IMG/VR virus record: IMGVR_UViG_3300030737_000007
Coordinates: 1-64,000 of that record
Strand: one strand, 5' to 3'
DNA: 64,000 bases
Origin: a virus
This document shows positions 7,923 to 36,296 of this stretch, piece by piece. Made by a program: the position numbers and the translations under genes. Numbering within the stretch: position 1 is the first letter of the stretch; each line of letters starts with the position of its first letter. A model generated the notes under the pieces. It saw nothing but the letters and a program-made list of their open reading frames with translations, made no database searches and was not told the origin of the DNA.

Positions 7923-7997
7923 TGGAGCCAAGATTCAGACTTGAACTGAAAACCTAACCATTACGAGTGGTTTGCTCTACCGTTGAGCTATCTTGGC
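7923..7997 (-). tRNA. tRNA-Thr(CGT)
   Basis: GCCAAGA acceptor pairs with TCTTGGC; TAGCTCAACGGTAGAGC D arm; AACCA-CTCGTAA-TGGTT anticodon arm; GTTCAAGT T loop; encoded CCA. Confidence 0.92.
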
Positions 7998-10215: not shown

Positions 10216-10291
10216 TGGCTGGGGAACTTGGGGTCGAACCAAGAACCGTTCGGTTAACAGCCGAATGCACTGCCAATTGTGCTATTCCCCA
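10216..10291 (-). tRNA. tRNA-Asn(GTT)
   Basis: TGGGGAA/TTCCCCA acceptor; TTCGG-CTGTTAA-CCGAA anticodon arm; GGTTCGAC T loop; encoded CCA. Confidence 0.93.
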
Positions 10292-10529: not shown

Positions 10530-10558
10530 ATTCTATCATAGTCAGAAAAATGTGTCAA
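10530..10558 (-). promoter_or_regulatory. Sigma70-type promoter for the tRNA/ncRNA block
   Basis: TTGACA-17 nt-TAGAAT on the minus strand; a repeat-motif copy at 10562-10574 abuts the -35. Confidence 0.75.
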
Positions 10559-13510: not shown

Positions 13511-16399
13511 CTAGCTGGAGGAAGTCTGAGACTGCAACCGGCGTAGCGTCATGGTAGAACCAGGCGAATCTGTTACCTTTTCCATTATGTGGAAACGGGC
13601 AAGTCGTTTCTGTTCCGCTTGCCTCATACGGTTGTTATTCCCGTATGTCCAGACTATTGCATACCTTTGCGGGTCTTCTTCGCTTAGTCGTTCACGGTCC
13701 CGTGTGTAGGGTTCCGCCTCGTTGGCATCACAGCGTCCGAGTCAATCAGAAGAAGTTTTACCTGCGCCGATGATTTAACGCAGGGTGTTGGTATACCTTC
13801 ACGGCTGTTATCTGCTGTATTACCAGCAAGATGAGTCATTTCTGCTCACCTCTTATGGTTCCAATTCCCATAAGGTCGGACTATCGCATCACCCCGAGGG
13901 GTGTTCTATCGCTTAGTCTCTCACGGCCCCTTTCGGGTTCCGCCCTGTCAGCCATCTCAGCTTCCAAGTCAATCAGATAGAATTTTCTAACTACGGCTCT
14001 CACCGTAGCGACGCAAGTATGTCTACGTTGTAGCTGACCCACGAACTAAGCTACGTTTACCAACACAGTCGGAGGCTGGGTCTGCACACCACCGATTTGA
14101 CGCGCAGGATCCGAAACCGAACCCTGTTCTGGAGCAGACTGGATGAAGAGCTTCACGTTTGTTACTCACCGTTGCCGATGGGGCGGGTCATTTCTGCTCG
14201 CCTCTGTACGTCACCGCACAGGTCGGACTATGTCATCACCCTCTTGCGAGGGGCAAGGTATATAGTCTCTACACGTTCCCGGATGTTCTCGGGCTTCGCT
14301 CGGCGTTTTCTCCAAAGGAGACGTTCACCGAATTAGCCTTGTGTTCGAAAGCAATTACTCGCTTAAGCTACCATTTTCAAATAGTTCTTCGATCCGTCTT
14401 CAGGATTCTTGCCGAGGAACACGGAGAAAATCGCGTCATCGCCAAAAATGTAAGTGTTGTAGAATGTGTTACCTGAGATGGTAACAGTAGGTGCCGTGGT
14501 CGTCTGCTTGAACTTAACCCCGCCGAACTTGATGACATCTTCGTTCTTCGGGAGCTCGAACAGCATAGCGCGCATGGAATCGTCACGCTTGATAATGTCG
14601 GTCAGACCATTAAAGCTCGTGTCGTTCAATACGTCGCGCACGACGTTGGGGTGGATGATTCCGCCGAACGAGTTGTCCATGAGAGGACGAGCGTTGACGG
14701 ATGCCAGCGACTGGGCCGCAGAGCGAATGTTGTTCGCAGTGAGGTAGGAGCCGTTGGCGAGCTGGATGTTCACCAGGGAATCGACCGCAACAGCCGAGTC
14801 AGCGGTAAGCTGGACAAGGGAGTTGAGGGTGAGGGCCAGGCGATAGTTCAGTTCGTTTGCAAGGTTCTGCAACAGACCTGGGTCATCGATGGCCACGTCG
14901 AGTGCCAAGTCCGAGGAATTGATAAAATCAGCGTACTGGCCGATTGTAGCAACGATCTTCGAGCTGGACTCGCTGATGGGGGAGCCCACGGTCCCTTCCG
15001 CCGCCTGGTTCAAATTGGCTGCGAGGAGAGCGTAGGTGTAGACAGTTGTGTTTTGGAGATGCCCTTTCGGGTCACCGGGCTTTCGCCCCTCTTATGTCAC
15101 CATAAGGTCGCTCTGTACGTCGCCGCACAGCTCGGACTCTATCTTCATTTCCAGATAATGGAAATGTCCGGCGTATTAGCCTCTACGGGTTCTGGTTGCC
15201 CAGTCTTCCCTCGGTATTGTCTCAAAGAGAGTTCCACCGATATAGCCGGATTTTACTTCAGCACATTAATACTGAATCTGGTTTCCCTGCCGAAGAGGCA
15301 GAGGGCGCTGCTTGGTCATGCTCAAAAAGGGCGTTTGGGCCTTGAGATTGGGCACGGCCTCGCGTTCATCATTGTGTTTAGGCCGCCAGCATCTCTGATG
15401 GGGCGCTCTGCATATCGCTATGCAGTTCAGACTGTATCTTCAGTTTCTTCAAAGCAATTAGGCGAAGATAAAGTTCTTCCCGTTTGGGCGGGCAATGAAC
15501 CTTGTGGCCTAATCCAACGTATTCCATTCCAGCTAGGGCCTCGTCTCTCTTGACTACGAGATACGGAAGCGTGTGGAGGAGAAACTGCTCAATGTGGAGT
15601 TTGTTGAACAAAGACCACTGGAAACAATTCCTTTTTCCTTTACTTCGAACGTCGCCGCCGTACAGTTTCTTGCAAGAATCAAGCACGGTCTTGTCGTTGT
15701 TCGAGATGGTCACGATCAGATGGTAGCAGATAACACCCCGAGAGAGGGTTTTGTTCACTCGGATGCAACCTTCGCCATCAAAGAAACCAGCCATGTAGGA
15801 GGGTTCTGCTTTGAGGTAACTGCTGTTCGTCTCAGTCGTTACGGACCCGTGTTGCTTCATTTCCTTGAGTTTTTGGAGGTATCCATGTTTCTGGTCCTCG
15901 GACAGATTTTCTCTGTTCTCAATAAACTCAATCAGAACGTCAGCTTGTTCCCTTTTGTATCTCAAGTAGGGCAGAATAGCTTTAAGGAAAGCAACGGTAG
16001 AAGGGAAGGATTGCAGGTACCAAATGTACCAATCCTCGCCTGCCTTGTTGTTTACATTGCGGGTAAAGCTGCCCCCGAAATGTAGCACAGACCACTGCAT
16101 CAAAGCTCTTGATTTATTGCTCAAGTATACTTTGGGTTCGAAGTAGGTCTTGCTTCCTCGTTTGTGGGTGGCGATCCGGATGCAACCTTCTGCATCGAAA
16201 ATCCCAGCCATGTAGCTTTTGGTTTTCTCTTTCACGGTTTCCTCGGTATTGTCTATATCCTTATGCTACCACACCTAGTAGTAAAAGTCAACAGAGTTTC
16301 ACCGATTTAGAACAGTTTTACTTCACCAAGAATTTAGTGAATGGCCACCAAGTTCGGTAGCGCGCCAGATGTAACGATTGATGCAGGAGAGTAACTCAT
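13511..16399 (-). CDS. Major capsid protein (N4-gp56-like), 7 exons, 327 aa after splicing
   Basis: Exons 16399-16336, 15369-15271, 15042-14381, 14153-14088, 14041-14025, 13799-13778 and 13564-13511 total 984 nt and give one open frame: MSYSPASIVTSGALPNLVAIHYEREAVPNLKAQTPF...IQFYTYALLAAN...GSKNYKLFIQSAPEQGSVSDPARQIGGWVSYNVRYTNTLRPGSTMTLRRLQSQTSSS*. Follows portal and scaffold. Confidence 0.88.
13565..13777 (-). mobile_element. Group I intron (capsid intron 6), 213 nt, ORF-less
   Basis: Exon CCTGCGT pairs with IGS GCGCAGG (U.G at the splice site); P3 CTTCTT/AAGAAG; P7 GACTA/TAGTC; terminal G. Confidence 0.9.
13800..14024 (-). mobile_element. Group I intron (capsid intron 5), 225 nt, ORF-less
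   Basis: P1 CAACGT/GCGTCG; P10 ATACTT/AGGTAT; P3 TTCTATC/GATAGAA; P7 GACTA/TAGTC; terminal G. Confidence 0.9.
14042..14087 (-). mobile_element. 46-nt coreless group I-like mini-intron (capsid intron 4)
   Basis: Removal restores ...QIGG|WVSYN...; follows U and ends in G; IGS GCCTCCGA pairs with exon TCGGTGGT; GACCCA pairs with 3' exon TGGGTC; contains an in-frame TAG. Confidence 0.75.
14154..14380 (-). mobile_element. Group I intron (capsid intron 3), 227 nt, ORF-less
   Basis: 5' site after AACTAT; P3 CAAGG/CCTTG; AATTCGGTGAA and AACGCCGAG (P4); GTAGAGACTA and GACATAGTCC (P7); terminal G. Confidence 0.9.
15043..15270 (-). mobile_element. Group I intron (capsid intron 2), 228 nt, ORF-less
   Basis: P1 TTCAGT/GCTGAA; P3 TCCGGC/GCCGGA; TATCGGTGGA and AATACCGAG; AAGATAGAGTCC; terminal G. 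Confidence 0.9.
15378..16235 (-). CDS. Double-motif LAGLIDADG homing endonuclease (intron-encoded)
   Basis: SYMAGIFDAEGCI and SYMAGFFDGEGCI motifs, each followed by LPYL..K. Confidence 0.93.
   Translation of the reverse strand: MKEKTKSYMAGIFDAEGCIRIATHKRGSKTYFEPKVYLSNKSRALMQWSVLHFGGSFTRNVNNKAGEDWYIWYLQSFPSTVAFLKAILPYLRYKREQADVLIEFIENRENLSEDQKHGYLQKLKEMKQHGSVTTETNSSYLKAEPSYMAGFFDGEGCIRVNKTLSRGVICYHLIVTISNNDKTVLDSCKKLYGGDVRSKGKRNCFQWSLFNKLHIEQFLLHTLPYLVVKRDEALAGMEYVGLGHKVHCPPKREELYLRLIALKKLKIQSELHSDMQSAPSEMLAA
16263..16291 (-). promoter_or_regulatory. Promoter inside intron 1, upstream of the endonuclease
   Basis: TTGACT-17 nt-TAGCAT with TG extension, about 30 nt before the GTG start. Confidence 0.6.
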
Positions 16400-21913: not shown

Positions 21914-22228
21914 TTATCCTTTGGATAGGCCCGCGAGCGAGCCGGTAGAGATAGATGAAGGGGACCCGGAACCAAAACTCAGTTGCGGAAAACTTGGGCC
22001 CGGCGGAGGGGCTACGTAGCCGTTGGGCCGGTCGATTCGTACGTGGGGTTGGAAGCTGATCCCGAAGAGTTCGTACATACCCGTGGCGGGGGCGTCAGAC
22101 TGGCGGGGCATGTCGGAGATGAATTTCTGTCCGGACGGGGGCCGCCACTGGGAGGGAGTCGAGGCGTCGGCCTTGTGCTCGGATAAGACGGTGCCGTCGT
22201 CGTCTACGATCTTGACTTCTATGCGCAT
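21914..22228 (-). CDS. Hypothetical protein
   Basis: Start placed at MRIEVKIV. Confidence 0.5.
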   Translation of the reverse strand: MRIEVKIVDDDGTVLSEHKADASTPSQWRPPSGQKFISDMPRQSDAPATGMYELFGISFQPHVRIDRPNGYVAPPPGPSFPQLSFGSGSPSSISTGSLAGLSKG

Positions 22229-22246
22229 GTGTGGTAGAATTTCCAG

Positions 22247-32826: not shown

Positions 32827-33240
32827 TTACTTTTGGGCTTGACGTTTGGCCTGATACTCGTCTAACATGTACCGCCTATCCGCTGGCATTTCCCACCTGT
32901 TGAGGACGATAAACCCGAACTTGCCCATTCGATTGAGCGGCGGCTTATGCGTATGAATGAGATACGCCTCTGTCCACATCCTGGTTAGATCGTTCGGGAT
33001 CTCGATACACGACACATGCGTCACTCCGTTGTCTATAAATTCCTGCATTCGGTTGTGGTACAGCAGCCTGTGTCGCGGCTGGACCGATGTTCCAACATAT
33101 AGCAGCCGGTTTGCCGCCCAAACTGTGTATACAGCGGGCCGTTTCGGAGCGGTACGGGCCGCCGCAAACCATTCATTCTCTTTGGGCGTGCCTGTCTTAT
33201 ATGGATAATTGGGTGGGAGCTGAAAATCGTCTGAATACAT
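32827..33240 (-). CDS. Small GIY-YIG nuclease
   Basis: AVYTV...LLYVGTS...RHRL..H and conserved E/P.LN; ATG 7 nt after TGTGATATAAT. Confidence 0.8.
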   Translation of the reverse strand: MYSDDFQLPPNYPYKTGTPKENEWFAAARTAPKRPAVYTVWAANRLLYVGTSVQPRHRLLYHNRMQEFIDNGVTHVSCIEIPNDLTRMWTEAYLIHTHKPPLNRMGKFGFIVLNRWEMPADRRYMLDEYQAKRQAQK

Positions 33241-33280
33241 GCTCCCATTATATCACATGCAATTTATTTCAGAAAAACAC

Positions 33281-33309
33281 TTGACAATTTATTCGGTGGG
33301 GAATAATGT
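33281..33309 (+). promoter_or_regulatory. Rightward early promoter at the arm divergence point
   Basis: TTGACA followed by an AATAATGT -10-like region, back-to-back with the leftward promoter. Confidence 0.55.
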
Positions 33310-33960
33310 GAGTTTGTTGGTTCAAAGCAAACGGAGGAAACACCCCATGAAAGACGCACAACAGGCTTTCGAGGAAGCGATCGCAGCCGGTAGACTGTCA
33401 CTCAACCCAGCCGCCACCAACTATGTCGGGCATTACATGTACATGGGCCCGAACGCAGCCGGAACACTCGACACGTTCAAACATCGTCTTACCCGGCAGT
33501 ACATCGCCTAACCGAAACGTCTTTACAACCTGGGAGGTAGAAAGTGCAAACCCTAAAGAAACTAACACTTACACACGTATTGCTCGCCGTCATTGCTGTG
33601 ATGCTCGGCCTAACCTATCACCGGCTGTTTCTCATGGATCAAGACATAGAGAACAACGTAGAGTTTTCACAACAGATTGCAACAGCGTTCGGCGCGCTTC
33701 CGAGCTCGGCGCGCTAGTTCTCAGTTTGAGAATTCCAGATAATGGACATAACCGCGCGGCGCGTATCGTCGCAGAATGAGGAACTTATGGAAGATCCAAG
33801 GGACGAAATTTACCGCGAAATGGCTCGGGAAGAGTACGGCTCCGACGAATGCGAGATAGATGATAACGCAGTGGTCAGCTACGGCGAGGATGGGGCGTTC
33901 GTCGCGGCTTGGGTTTGGGTTCGCTACCCCGAGAAAAGCGAAACAGAGGACGAAGACGAA

Positions 33961-34016
33961 GCCGCCTGATGAGCCGGTGAGATCCCGGCGAAACGCTCGA
34001 ACCTGGGCGTAGCGGT
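33961..34016 (+). ncRNA. Hammerhead ribozyme (type I)
   Basis: Stem I GCCGC/GCGGT, CTGATGA, stem II GCCGG/CCGGC, GAAA, stem III CGCTC/GGGCG, GUA triplet; cleavage after A34011. Confidence 0.88.
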
Positions 34017-34202
34017 ACGCAACTTGACAACCTAACCCCTAGCCTGTAGTATGGTCTAAATCTGAAAGTGAGGCGCGATGCCTAAGCTAACCCCAACTGA
34101 GCGCGGATACATGAAGACGGAGTTTATCGAGTTCGTTTGTCTTATGGCGCTCTTGATATTCATTCTTTGGATCTGAACCGAGACCCGGCGGTATCCGGGT
34201 TA

Positions 34203-34269
34203 GCTCCCCTACAACCTGGCCGCCAAGTGGCGGGGAGCGGGCAACGGGTTTATCCCGGCTAATAGGTTG
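34203..34269 (+). ncRNA. HDV-like self-cleaving ribozyme
   Basis: P1 GCTCCCC/GGGGAGC, P2 CAACCTG/TAGGTTG, P3 GCC/GGC, P1.1 CC/GG, GCAA, P4 CGGG/CCCG, J4/2 GCTAA (catalytic C34259). L3 starts with G rather than the usual U. Confidence 0.82.
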
Positions 34270-35390
34270 AGAAAGAGAGGGTTACATGAGAAAATATCCT
34301 GAACACGAAAAACAAGCGAAGGTGCTCGACCAGAGTCAAACAATTGGCTCGTTCCTAGATAACGGCGGTCTGGGTGATGGTGTAGTTTTAGCCAAATGGG
34401 ACGAACGTCCGGGGAGGGATAATCTGTACCCCATCCACATGGATATCAACAAAATACTCGCCGCTTATTTTGAGATCGACCTCAACAAGATCGAAAAGGA
34501 AAAGCAGCAGATGCTGAAAGATCTCCGAACGGCTGCCGCATGAAACGCCATGATCTAATGCGCTACACCTACGGCGATATCTCTTACCTGGTAATAGTCC
34601 AGCGGGCAACGCTCGACGAGTTCGGGACTGTACTAGTCAAGCGGGATGACGACGGGCACTATTTCTTCGCCACGCCCGAACGGTTGGAGGCTGTAATTGC
34701 TGATCCCAGCGTTTAGCCGCTCCCCCAGCCGTTTACCACCAAAGGCCGCGACCAGGTTTAGGGCCGCGATTCTACCCGCTGGACGCAAAACAGTAAGCCG
34801 CACGGCGCGAACGGATTGGACCTGTGTAGCCTGTATGAAGGGTAAACACGGGTGCGTAAGTCGCAAATGTAACTGTGTCCGGTGTAATCTAGCTTGACGG
34901 GCACGAAACCGCAGCGTAGTATTCCATTATTTGGAAAGAGAGGGCCAAATGACTAAGAAGGACGCCGTAGCAACAGCAGTCAAGCGAGTAGACGAGACTG
35001 GGTTTACCTTCCTCGTTTTGCGCCGAGGATATGGCTATCGAGCGCAAATCTCTTCCTACCCAGTTGCGCGAGGCTGGAAGATCGCCGAACAGATTGGTGT
35101 CGGCAACGTACAGAACTTCCGCGATGACCTACAGGAATTCAACCCGATTTGTGATGTCGTTTCTTAGGAGGAACCGATGCCGAGATACAAAGTAGCTTTA
35201 GAAGTCGAGATCGAAGCCGAAAGCGCAGAGGCCGCGTTTGCTTACGTCCGGTCTTACGCCACGATCACAGACGAGTACGCGGCCCAACACGGTACGCAAT
35301 CGCAGTTTGAGTTCTATGTGTTGCCGCCAGAAGAGCTGGCCGAGGGAGAATTGGTAATTCAGTAACACGCCCGCCCGAGCGTATCGGGTA

Positions 35391-35439
35391 GTCCGCCACA
35401 AACCAGCCTCCACGCGGCGCGGACGGGTAAAGCTAATGG
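35391..35439 (+). ncRNA. Minimal HDV-like ribozyme lacking P4
   Basis: P1 GTCCGC/GCGGAC, P3 GCC/GGC, L3 TCCACGC, P1.1 CC/GG, J4/2 GCTAA (C35433); P2 is only CCA/TGG. Confidence 0.65.
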
Positions 35440-36296
35440 GCGAAAGGGAGTGTTTATGCAATGCAAGATATGCAACACCAGGACGGAAGCGCCTTACGCT
35501 GTAGCGACGAGAGTCAACAGCAAGGAGCTTTCCATCAAAAGGTATAACCGCACGGCGCAGCCGGTCAAAGGCTCGGTGTTACTATGTGGCGTGCGTTGCT
35601 CGGGCTCGGCGCTTGAACGGTTCCTACAGTCGGGCTCTCTTGAAATGCCAAACCAGCAAGGGAGGATTCCAGATAATGGACGAACAATTTGACCCCGAGA
35701 AAGTAGATCGCTGGGAGCCCCAATGGGACTATGACTTCGCGGGCATGGGAATAGACCCCGATGGCGGTTTCGTAGCCGTAGAAGATTACGACAAACTCCT
35801 ACAAGTCCACATCCAGACTCTAATCGACTTCAACGCCTGCACCCTAAAGCTCGCCGCAATGAAAGGATGACATGACCGACCTAGCCGAACGCAGCACACG
35901 CAACCGCTTCGGGACCTCCGAGGTACTGTTCACCAAGGGCAAGAACCGGAAGATAATTGTCGAGGCCCGCCCGCGGTGTGCTATCATAAAGTTCTCAGGG
36001 TTACACGCAGAGTATGAGGTTCCGTGGAGCGCGATCGCGAGCCTGGCAGTAAAGGCAGACGTGGCGGCTAAGCGGGCGGCGAAGAAAGCGAAGGTGGCGG
36101 CGTGATTGAAGTAACAACCAGCAAACAGTGGGCTTGGTGCAAAACCTGTGACGGCCTGATTGTGCGGGAGTCAGCAGATCGCATTTGGAGCCACGCCCGA
36201 TCAAACAACCATTGCCACAATTTGGTCGTAGAGCCTTTCATTTCAGCCACTGAGATAGAAATGGCTTCCTTGCTCCGAAATTCCAGATAATGGAAA

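Follow-up and report, generated by a model that had tools for sequence, protein, structure and literature searches.

The question raised by the locus described here is why two self-cleaving ribozymes of different classes should lie on the same strand of a phage genome with only 191 nucleotides (nt) between their predicted cuts. The DNA analysed, called the window below, is the first 64 kb of the 91.9-kb IMG/VR virus record IMGVR_UViG_3300030737_000007, which has a CheckV completeness of 85%. An earlier note on this DNA had described a hammerhead ribozyme and a hepatitis delta virus (HDV)-like ribozyme on either side of a 191-nt segment (34012–34202), and had proposed that this segment could circularise. 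We found both ribozymes, and about 1.5 kb of the window holds three ribozymes of two classes (the third being probable), two promoters and very short cistrons. In our judgement, the ribozymes probably act in cis to process the plus-strand transcript at its gene junctions, without a host nuclease, insulating a moron-like cassette for a small peptide.

A type I hammerhead in which the upstream gene ends

The hammerhead (Table 1) has an open stem I of five pairs, one of them G-U (33961–33965 with 34012–34016), a stem II of five pairs closed by a loop (33973–33977 with 33985–33989) and a stem III of seven pairs that is likewise closed by a loop (33993–33999 with 34004–34010). These three helices surround a core with all the conserved type I elements: CUGAUGA at 33966–33972, GAAA at 33990–33993, an A33993–U34010 pair (A15.1–U16.1) and a residue other than G, A34011, at the cut. 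No mispair adjoins the core, and the minimum-energy fold of 33955–34022 is this same three-way junction. The CUGAUGA includes the TGA stop codon of the upstream open reading frame (ORF), as the earlier note had remarked.

A type I descriptor run over both strands found this one site only in the window, and dinucleotide shuffles (n = 300) gave 0.013 sites per window when 3-bp stems were allowed and none with 4-bp stems. Some 250,000 windows had been scanned, so that a lone descriptor hit could be due to chance and comparative evidence was needed. None of the Rfam hammerhead models reached its gathering score in the window: only Hammerhead_3, which describes the permuted type III, matched the core, with 20.9 against 48.5 bits, and RF00163 gave no hit.

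Relatives were retrieved with a pattern that fixed only stem I, the core and the GUA, all taken from the window sequence. It matched 49 sites in 36 viral contigs, against a chance expectation that we estimate at about 0.5, and 40 sites in 39 bacterial contigs (Rhizobium, Inquilinus, cyanobacteria, Acidobacteriota, Paenibacillus and others). Because the members were retrieved with a window-derived pattern, the constancy of their stem I and core is built in. Independent signal comes from loop II, the flanks and stems II and III, and these two stems remain paired among the matches although their sequences vary freely. In a structural alignment of 63 sequences, 98.5% of the cells were paired, compared to 71.6% in shuffles and 33–49% in slid controls, and both sides changed in 12 of the 17 pairs; the sequences had been aligned by fitting them to the model, a procedure that tilts the result somewhat towards the structure. 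Intact cores together with covarying stems across many lineages imply selection for the fold.

Since a MAFFT alignment of two hammerheads proved not to be structure-aware, a single-sequence model was used instead. A family model (R2), built from the 63 sequences with the window excluded, recovered the window hammerhead with 62.5 bits (E 1.8e-13) as its sole hit in 430 kb, the remainder of the phage included. In the 29 relatives' loci that were scanned with the Rfam hammerhead models (L094–L129), which hold most of the 49 covarying relatives, no model reached its gathering score either, and the silence of Rfam on the window hammerhead is therefore uninformative. Descriptor, fold and family model all place the hammerhead where the earlier note had put it, with the predicted cut after 34011. 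By sequence and family criteria it is genuine, and it is predicted to cleave itself.

One relative stands at the corresponding place in another locus. This is L065, one of 80 metagenome loci with homologues of the 75-residue protein encoded upstream, whose type I hammerhead is positioned as in the window; the homologous ORF also ends GCC GCC TGA within the core, and stems II and III differ in sequence but pair. A second candidate, in L021, was not counted: a C–U mispair adjoins its core, and the family model failed to recover it. A weak match of the single-sequence model within the window itself (35322–35390, plus strand, 15.4 bits) was set aside as well; its core reads CAGAAGA and it lacks the GAAA, so that it is either a decayed hammerhead or a chance match.

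The subfamily to which the window hammerhead belongs (type I, stem I CCGC/GCGG, GUA cut site) is widespread, occurring at loci L094–L129 and L139–L177 in phages and in many bacterial phyla. A 7-nt loop II, UGRRAYY, together with RAG/UA flanks of stem I, is common to the window, L097, L111, L140, L143 and L163. In L107, L108, L122, L126 and others, loop II (UUGGC or UGGU) is complementary to a GCCAA just 3' of stem I. The complementarity suggests that a pseudoknot may serve as the tertiary contact in one subgroup of these hammerheads; in the subgroup of the window, loop II is of the UGRRAYY form instead.

HDV-like ribozymes preceded by hairpins

At the other end of the segment, the Rfam model RF02682 (HDV ribozyme from F. 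prausnitzii) matched 34203–34271 with 45 bits against a gathering score of 44 (E 1.5e-8 in the whole record). All five helices are present: P1 of 7 bp (34203–34209/34232–34238), a perfect 6-bp P2 (34212–34217/34264–34269), P3 (34219–34221/34229–34231) with a 7-nt L3, P1.1 of two G-C pairs (C34223–34224/G34239–34240) and P4 (34245–34248/34254–34257). P2 and P1.1 lie outside the Rfam model. The catalytic C34259 stands at the start of J4/2 and G34203 at position +1, in agreement with the cut before 34203 that the earlier note had predicted. HDV-like ribozyme 1 is real by every sequence test available, and self-cleavage is predicted for it too.

A second, minimal element of the same kind, HDV-like ribozyme 2, lies about 1.2 kb downstream. 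Its P1 has 6 bp, its L3 reads UCCACGC, P1.1 is CC/GG, J4/2 is CUAA and P2 has only 3 bp. RF02682 scored it at 19.2 bits (E 0.0145), a score second in the genome only to that of ribozyme 1, with which it shares both strand and context, and we regard it as a probable HDV-like ribozyme. When a short (3-bp) P2 was allowed, the hits of an HDV descriptor of our own could not be told from noise in G+C-rich DNA, and they were discounted.

A strict HDV-like DNA pattern, which the window copy fits, picked out eight stretches; three of them (in L107, L134 and L136) have ribozyme anatomy, as the window copy has, and the other five have no P1. The copy on the minus strand of L134 (about 2380–2470) is a close relative of ribozyme 1, with the same P1 core, a similar L3 and a hairpin with a UUCG loop before it; at position +1 it has an A for the G, opposite a C. 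A G+C-rich hairpin stands 1–3 nt ahead of the HDV-like cut in both window copies, L107 and L134 (four of four), and a ribosome-binding site (RBS) and an ATG follow within about 15 nt of the ribozyme in the two window copies and L107.

The HDV-like ribozyme of L136 (8820–8980, plus strand), on a 181-kb viral contig, directly follows a tRNA at the end of an array of at least 11 tRNA genes, which is the arrangement of theta ribozymes. No tRNA lies within 5 nt of the HDV-like cuts in the window, where a hairpin precedes both; the window has two tRNAs only (7926–7997 and 10219–10291). The possibility that the hairpins are tRNA-like was rejected: they have no acceptor strand and stand only 2–3 nt ahead of the cut.

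The segment between the two cuts

The earlier note had placed a promoter and a small hydrophobic ORF of 32 codons between the ribozymes, in a segment of 191 nt, and all of these are present. The promoter is of the sigma-70 type and of a kind that recurs in this phage: TTGAC-N18-TANNAT is found at five places in the window, where 0.2 would be expected, namely at 10530–10558 and 16263–16291 on the minus strand and at 22212–22240, 34024–34052 and 34894–34922 on the plus strand, and every copy is directed as the local genes run. We take the promoter inside the segment as real on the strength of this recurrence and its match to the consensus, with transcription predicted to start near 34059. Promoters of this type, TTGAC-N18-TA(G)NAT, often have GTAG ahead of the last three bases.

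The encoded peptide has a charged N-terminal half and a hydrophobic tail of 17 residues, with a mean Kyte–Doolittle value that we calculate at about 2.8. The codon score of the ORF, 0.165 per codon, is close to the mean of 0.154 for the genes of the phage, and only 1.2% of 85 spurious small ORFs reach it. No homologue was found among 1.84 billion representative proteins, nor did the peptide match a Pfam family; ESM look-alikes were at chance level only (≤0.81). The codon score, the RBS and the hydrophobic tail make it likely that the ORF encodes a small membrane peptide, and a toxin or exclusion role for it is a guess. In its predicted fold, the 191-nt RNA is no more stable than shuffled versions (z = +0.28), and the two ends are not brought together.

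Table 1. Predicted ribozymes, hairpins, promoters and reading frames of the locus, in window coordinates.
Feature	Position	Strand	Basis and remarks
75-residue gene	33742–33969	+	ORF list; TGA stop (33967–33969) inside hammerhead core
Type I hammerhead ribozyme	33961–34016	+	Descriptor, minimum-energy fold, family model; predicted cut after A34011 (GUA)
Sigma-70-type promoter	34024–34052	+	TTGACA-17-TAGTAT; 10 of 12 consensus matches; inferred start near 34059
32-codon ORF	34078–34176	+	ORF list; GAGG RBS 4 nt before ATG
G+C-rich hairpin	34183–34200	+	6 pairs, loop CGGUAU; ends 2 nt before the cut of ribozyme 1; predicted in the fold of 34012–34202
HDV-like ribozyme 1	34203–34269	+	RF02682; predicted cut before G34203; catalytic C34259
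85-residue gene	34286–34543	+	ORF list; RBS begins a few nt past HDV-like ribozyme 1
Second promoter, same type	34894–34922	+	TTGACG-17-TAGTAT; motif search
Hairpin	35374–35388	+	5 pairs, loop GCGUA; ends 2 nt before the cut of ribozyme 2
HDV-like ribozyme 2 (P4-less, minimal), probable	35391–35441	+	Anatomy by inspection; followed by RBS and ATG 35456

Placement and arrays in other phages

Among 38 distinct hammerhead contexts of the subfamily, the UGA of the core closes a frame that is open for at least 50 codons in 20, and in about ten more a long frame stops 9–12 nt upstream. The next ORF with an RBS mostly begins 25–80 nt past the cut.

Several of these phages carry more than one ribozyme. 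With the single-sequence model, seven hammerhead matches were found within 5 kb of L097 (5677–10568, plus strand), roughly one per gene junction, and three hammerheads each in L102, L118, L127 and L128. Two hammerheads and one twister ribozyme are present in both L101 and L121. A 2.7-kb stretch of L107 (8934–11601, plus strand) contains two Twister-P5 ribozymes, a hammerhead with the upstream stop codon in its core and an HDV-like ribozyme recognised by RF02682 (48.4 bits). The latter two enclose about 1.2 kb with three reading frames, and L107 is the only other phage in which we found a hammerhead and then an HDV-like ribozyme. In L118 (2516–2876, minus strand), two near-identical hammerheads with near-identical flanks lie 297 nt apart, an arrangement suggestive of a short hammerhead-bearing unit that was duplicated in tandem.

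Probable processing of the transcript at gene junctions

On the reading that we favour, cleavage would take place in vivo, and the operon that starts at a strand switch near 33240 would carry three constitutive self-cleaving ribozymes that cut its transcript into defined pieces. The hammerhead would cut 42 nt past the stop codon of the 75-residue gene and detach the read-through RNA from the cassette, and the upstream mRNA would have the folded stems II and III at its 3' end, which would bear a 2',3'-cyclic phosphate. The cassette itself would be moron-like, with its own promoter, an ORF for a membrane peptide and a 3' hairpin. Ribozyme 1 would cut 2 nt past this hairpin, so that the peptide RNA, about 144 nt long when made from its own promoter and 191 nt when derived from read-through, would end in a structure that may protect it. 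The next mRNA would start with a 5'-OH and a compact ribozyme fold directly ahead of its RBS. The same layout of hairpin, ribozyme, RBS and ORF would be repeated 1.2 kb downstream.

The expected effect of such processing is that the stability and translation of neighbouring cistrons would be uncoupled, as with the RNase III sites of phage T7 early mRNA. In T7, RNase III, a host enzyme, cuts a double-stranded stem between cistrons and leaves each upstream mRNA with a hairpin at its 3' end. The likeness, by analogy, is in the intercistronic cuts and the 3' hairpins, whereas here the RNA would cut itself and leave a 5'-OH and a cyclic phosphate. Processing of polycistronic RNA has been proposed for the clustered hammerheads of prophages, of which three arrays cleave in vitro and in E. 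coli (Perreault et al. 2011, PMC3088659).

Several points weigh against this reading. Only 1 of 28 hammerhead-bearing viral records had a match to RF02682, and this model had none in the scanned relatives of either flanking gene. At 90 loci with a homologue of either flanking gene there was a clear hammerhead in L065 alone, the only one to satisfy the descriptor, and a doubtful one in L021, and no Rfam ribozyme was found in those loci of flanking-gene relatives that were scanned (L002–L011). Such sporadic occurrence among relatives suggests that the ribozymes are easily gained or lost, and dispensable. Ribozyme 2 falls below the Rfam threshold. A 5'-OH can moreover destabilise RNA in hosts with RNase J1, as with glmS in Bacillus, so that the direction of any effect on stability would depend on the host. 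A 2019 review that takes the same processing view also calls the biology of bacterial and phage ribozyme arrays largely unknown (PMC6765202).

Alternative explanations

On the model raised by the earlier note, both ribozymes would free the 191-nt RNA from a read-through transcript, and RtcB of the host could close it into a circle, a stable mRNA that encodes a toxin- or exclusion-like membrane peptide of 32 residues. If so, a DNA phage would for the first time be seen to make a circular RNA that codes for protein; we consider this very improbable. The geometry is exact, in that the excised piece keeps 5 nt of the hammerhead and nothing of the HDV-like ribozyme; the ends that both classes leave, a 5'-OH and a 2',3'-cyclic phosphate, suit joining by RtcB, a chemistry that the note had quoted and that is established knowledge; and the 32-codon ORF looks coding. 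However, the unit contains a promoter of its own, so that RNAs for the peptide would mostly begin near 34059, downstream of the hammerhead, and have a 5' triphosphate, an end that RtcB cannot join. There is no terminal helix that would bring the ends together, the RNA has no unusual stability, as its z-score indicates, and no RtcB is encoded in the phage record (92 kb, 85% complete). Neither ribozyme could religate the ends, because the hammerhead and the HDV-like ribozyme are of different classes. The corresponding pair in L107 encloses some 1.2 kb rather than a short unit, related hammerheads form arrays at gene junctions of the ordinary kind, and a search for circles or spliced RNAs from clustered phage hammerheads found none (Perreault et al. 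2011, PMC3088659). The notion of a unit built to circularise therefore gained no support.

A more plausible alternative than the circular RNA is that the hammerhead is gated by translation. A terminating ribosome would cover stem I, the core and part of stem II, and cleavage would then report on translation upstream. The idea is a regulatory refinement of the processing model and, as an explanation in its own right, seems to us unlikely, even if the least unlikely of the rivals. The stop codon lies within the core in the window, L065 and L107, the core UGA ends a long frame in 20 of the 38 subfamily contexts, and regulated cleavage has been raised for phage hammerheads (Perreault et al., PMC3088659). 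However, CUGAUGA contains two in-frame UGA codons, so that any ORF entering that frame, about one-third of cases by chance, must stop there, and the stop-in-core pattern is to that extent automatic; many subfamily members have the stop 9–12 nt upstream instead. We give still less credence to two further possibilities, which we hold to be about equally improbable. The ribozymes might be neutral or selfish passengers at the borders of mobile cassettes, perhaps active and of no use to phage expression. Their sporadic distribution among relatives, the resemblance of the enclosed unit to an inserted moron and the near-identical tandem units in L118 fit this idea, but the intact cores and covarying stems in many lineages imply selection for the fold, the placement between a stop codon and the next RBS is consistent, and hairpins stand at the HDV-like cuts in four of four cases. 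Alternatively, the RNA between the cuts might be a small non-coding RNA in which the 32-codon ORF is untranslated. The peptide lacks homologues in the protein search, and in its shortness and terminal hairpin the RNA resembles many small RNAs; on the other hand, the ORF has the codon usage of a typical phage gene, with a score that few spurious small ORFs attain, a GAGG RBS is in place, and the fold of the RNA is unremarkable.

Comparison with known systems

Processing of the transcript at gene junctions, the reading preferred here, can be set beside several known systems. In synthetic cassettes for guide RNAs, a 5' hammerhead cuts at its own 3' edge and a 3' HDV ribozyme at its own 5' edge, leaving a nearly scarless insert. 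The order and geometry are the same in the window, but the natural unit holds a promoter, so that most of its RNA would bypass the hammerhead. Viroid-like RNAs and retrozymes are marked by a helix that holds the ends or a rod-like fold, together with an available ligating ribozyme or ligase; in the 191-nt RNA no helix joins the ends, the two ribozymes are of different classes, and the phage record encodes no RtcB.

The clustered prophage hammerheads of Agrobacterium tumefaciens, Azorhizobium caulinodans and Clostridium scindens (Perreault et al. 2011, PMC3088659) are similar in that hammerheads with a consensus core stand at phage gene junctions, several per transcript. In the window, by contrast, an HDV-like ribozyme takes the place of a second hammerhead downstream, the unit between the cuts has its own promoter and a length of only 191 nt, and the hammerhead is of a type I subfamily that falls below all Rfam hammerhead thresholds.

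The HDV-like ribozymes resemble RF02682 (HDV-F-prausnitzii) and the non-tRNA minimal HDV-like or theta ribozymes of Caudoviricetes (Kienbeck et al. 2024, PMC10879173) in their nested double pseudoknot and the catalytic C in J4/2. They also share with the Caudoviricetes ribozymes the location in phage non-coding regions, sense to the nearest gene, with a structured RNA ending at the cut. Kienbeck et al. reported 526 non-tRNA hits in phage non-coding regions and left their function open. The window copies differ in that a G+C-rich hairpin, not a tRNA, precedes the cut and in their environmental rather than gut source; copy 2 differs further in its missing P4 and its score below the Rfam threshold. 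Different ribozyme classes located within a few hundred nt of each other on one strand have been described in bacteria and phages (PMC6765202), and the locus agrees with them in this respect; it differs in combining a hammerhead with an HDV-like ribozyme, which is rare, as the single RF02682 match among the hammerhead-bearing viral records indicates.

Genomic setting and neighbouring genes

The genes of the window lie on the minus strand before the switch near 33240 and on the plus strand after it, and the locus is situated 0.7–1.0 kb into the plus-strand block, among short ORFs without a Pfam family. No terminator-like site was found on the plus strand in 33000–35500, which favours the processing reading. 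A distant blastn search of INPHARED phages gave no match to 33000–36000, and no viral relatives were found for a neighbouring gene of 240 codons.

The 75-residue protein encoded immediately upstream has 13 homologues with an invariant AFVAAWVWV-type motif, and 244 metagenome matches. Its family is a large one of phages, as yet uncharacterised, in which the motif ...DDNAVVS.G..GAFVAAWVWV is invariant; some proteins of the family have a C-terminal CxxC...CxxC extension. Homologues of the 85-residue protein encoded downstream occur in five viral contigs, at 32–48% identity, and none of these has the HDV-like ribozyme; an identical protein is encoded on 29 contigs.

Two group I introns were also present on the minus strand, among the genes there, at 14204–14392 and 15113–15280, about 0.7 kb apart; both are at the Rfam gathering score (50.9 and 53 bits).

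Significance

The locus is another case of a known habit of phages, the placing of ribozymes at gene junctions, and it leaves the known picture unchanged in kind. What it adds is in the details: HDV-like ribozymes outside a tRNA context, with a hairpin upstream and an RBS downstream, and a hammerhead subfamily about half of whose members have the upstream stop codon in their core. Because this type I subfamily escapes the Rfam thresholds, phage ribozyme arrays are under-annotated. For the question of what self-cleaving ribozymes, of which phages and bacteria have thousands, may do, the locus offers a compact test case, in which processing, end protection and possible coupling to translation termination could be addressed on one small construct.

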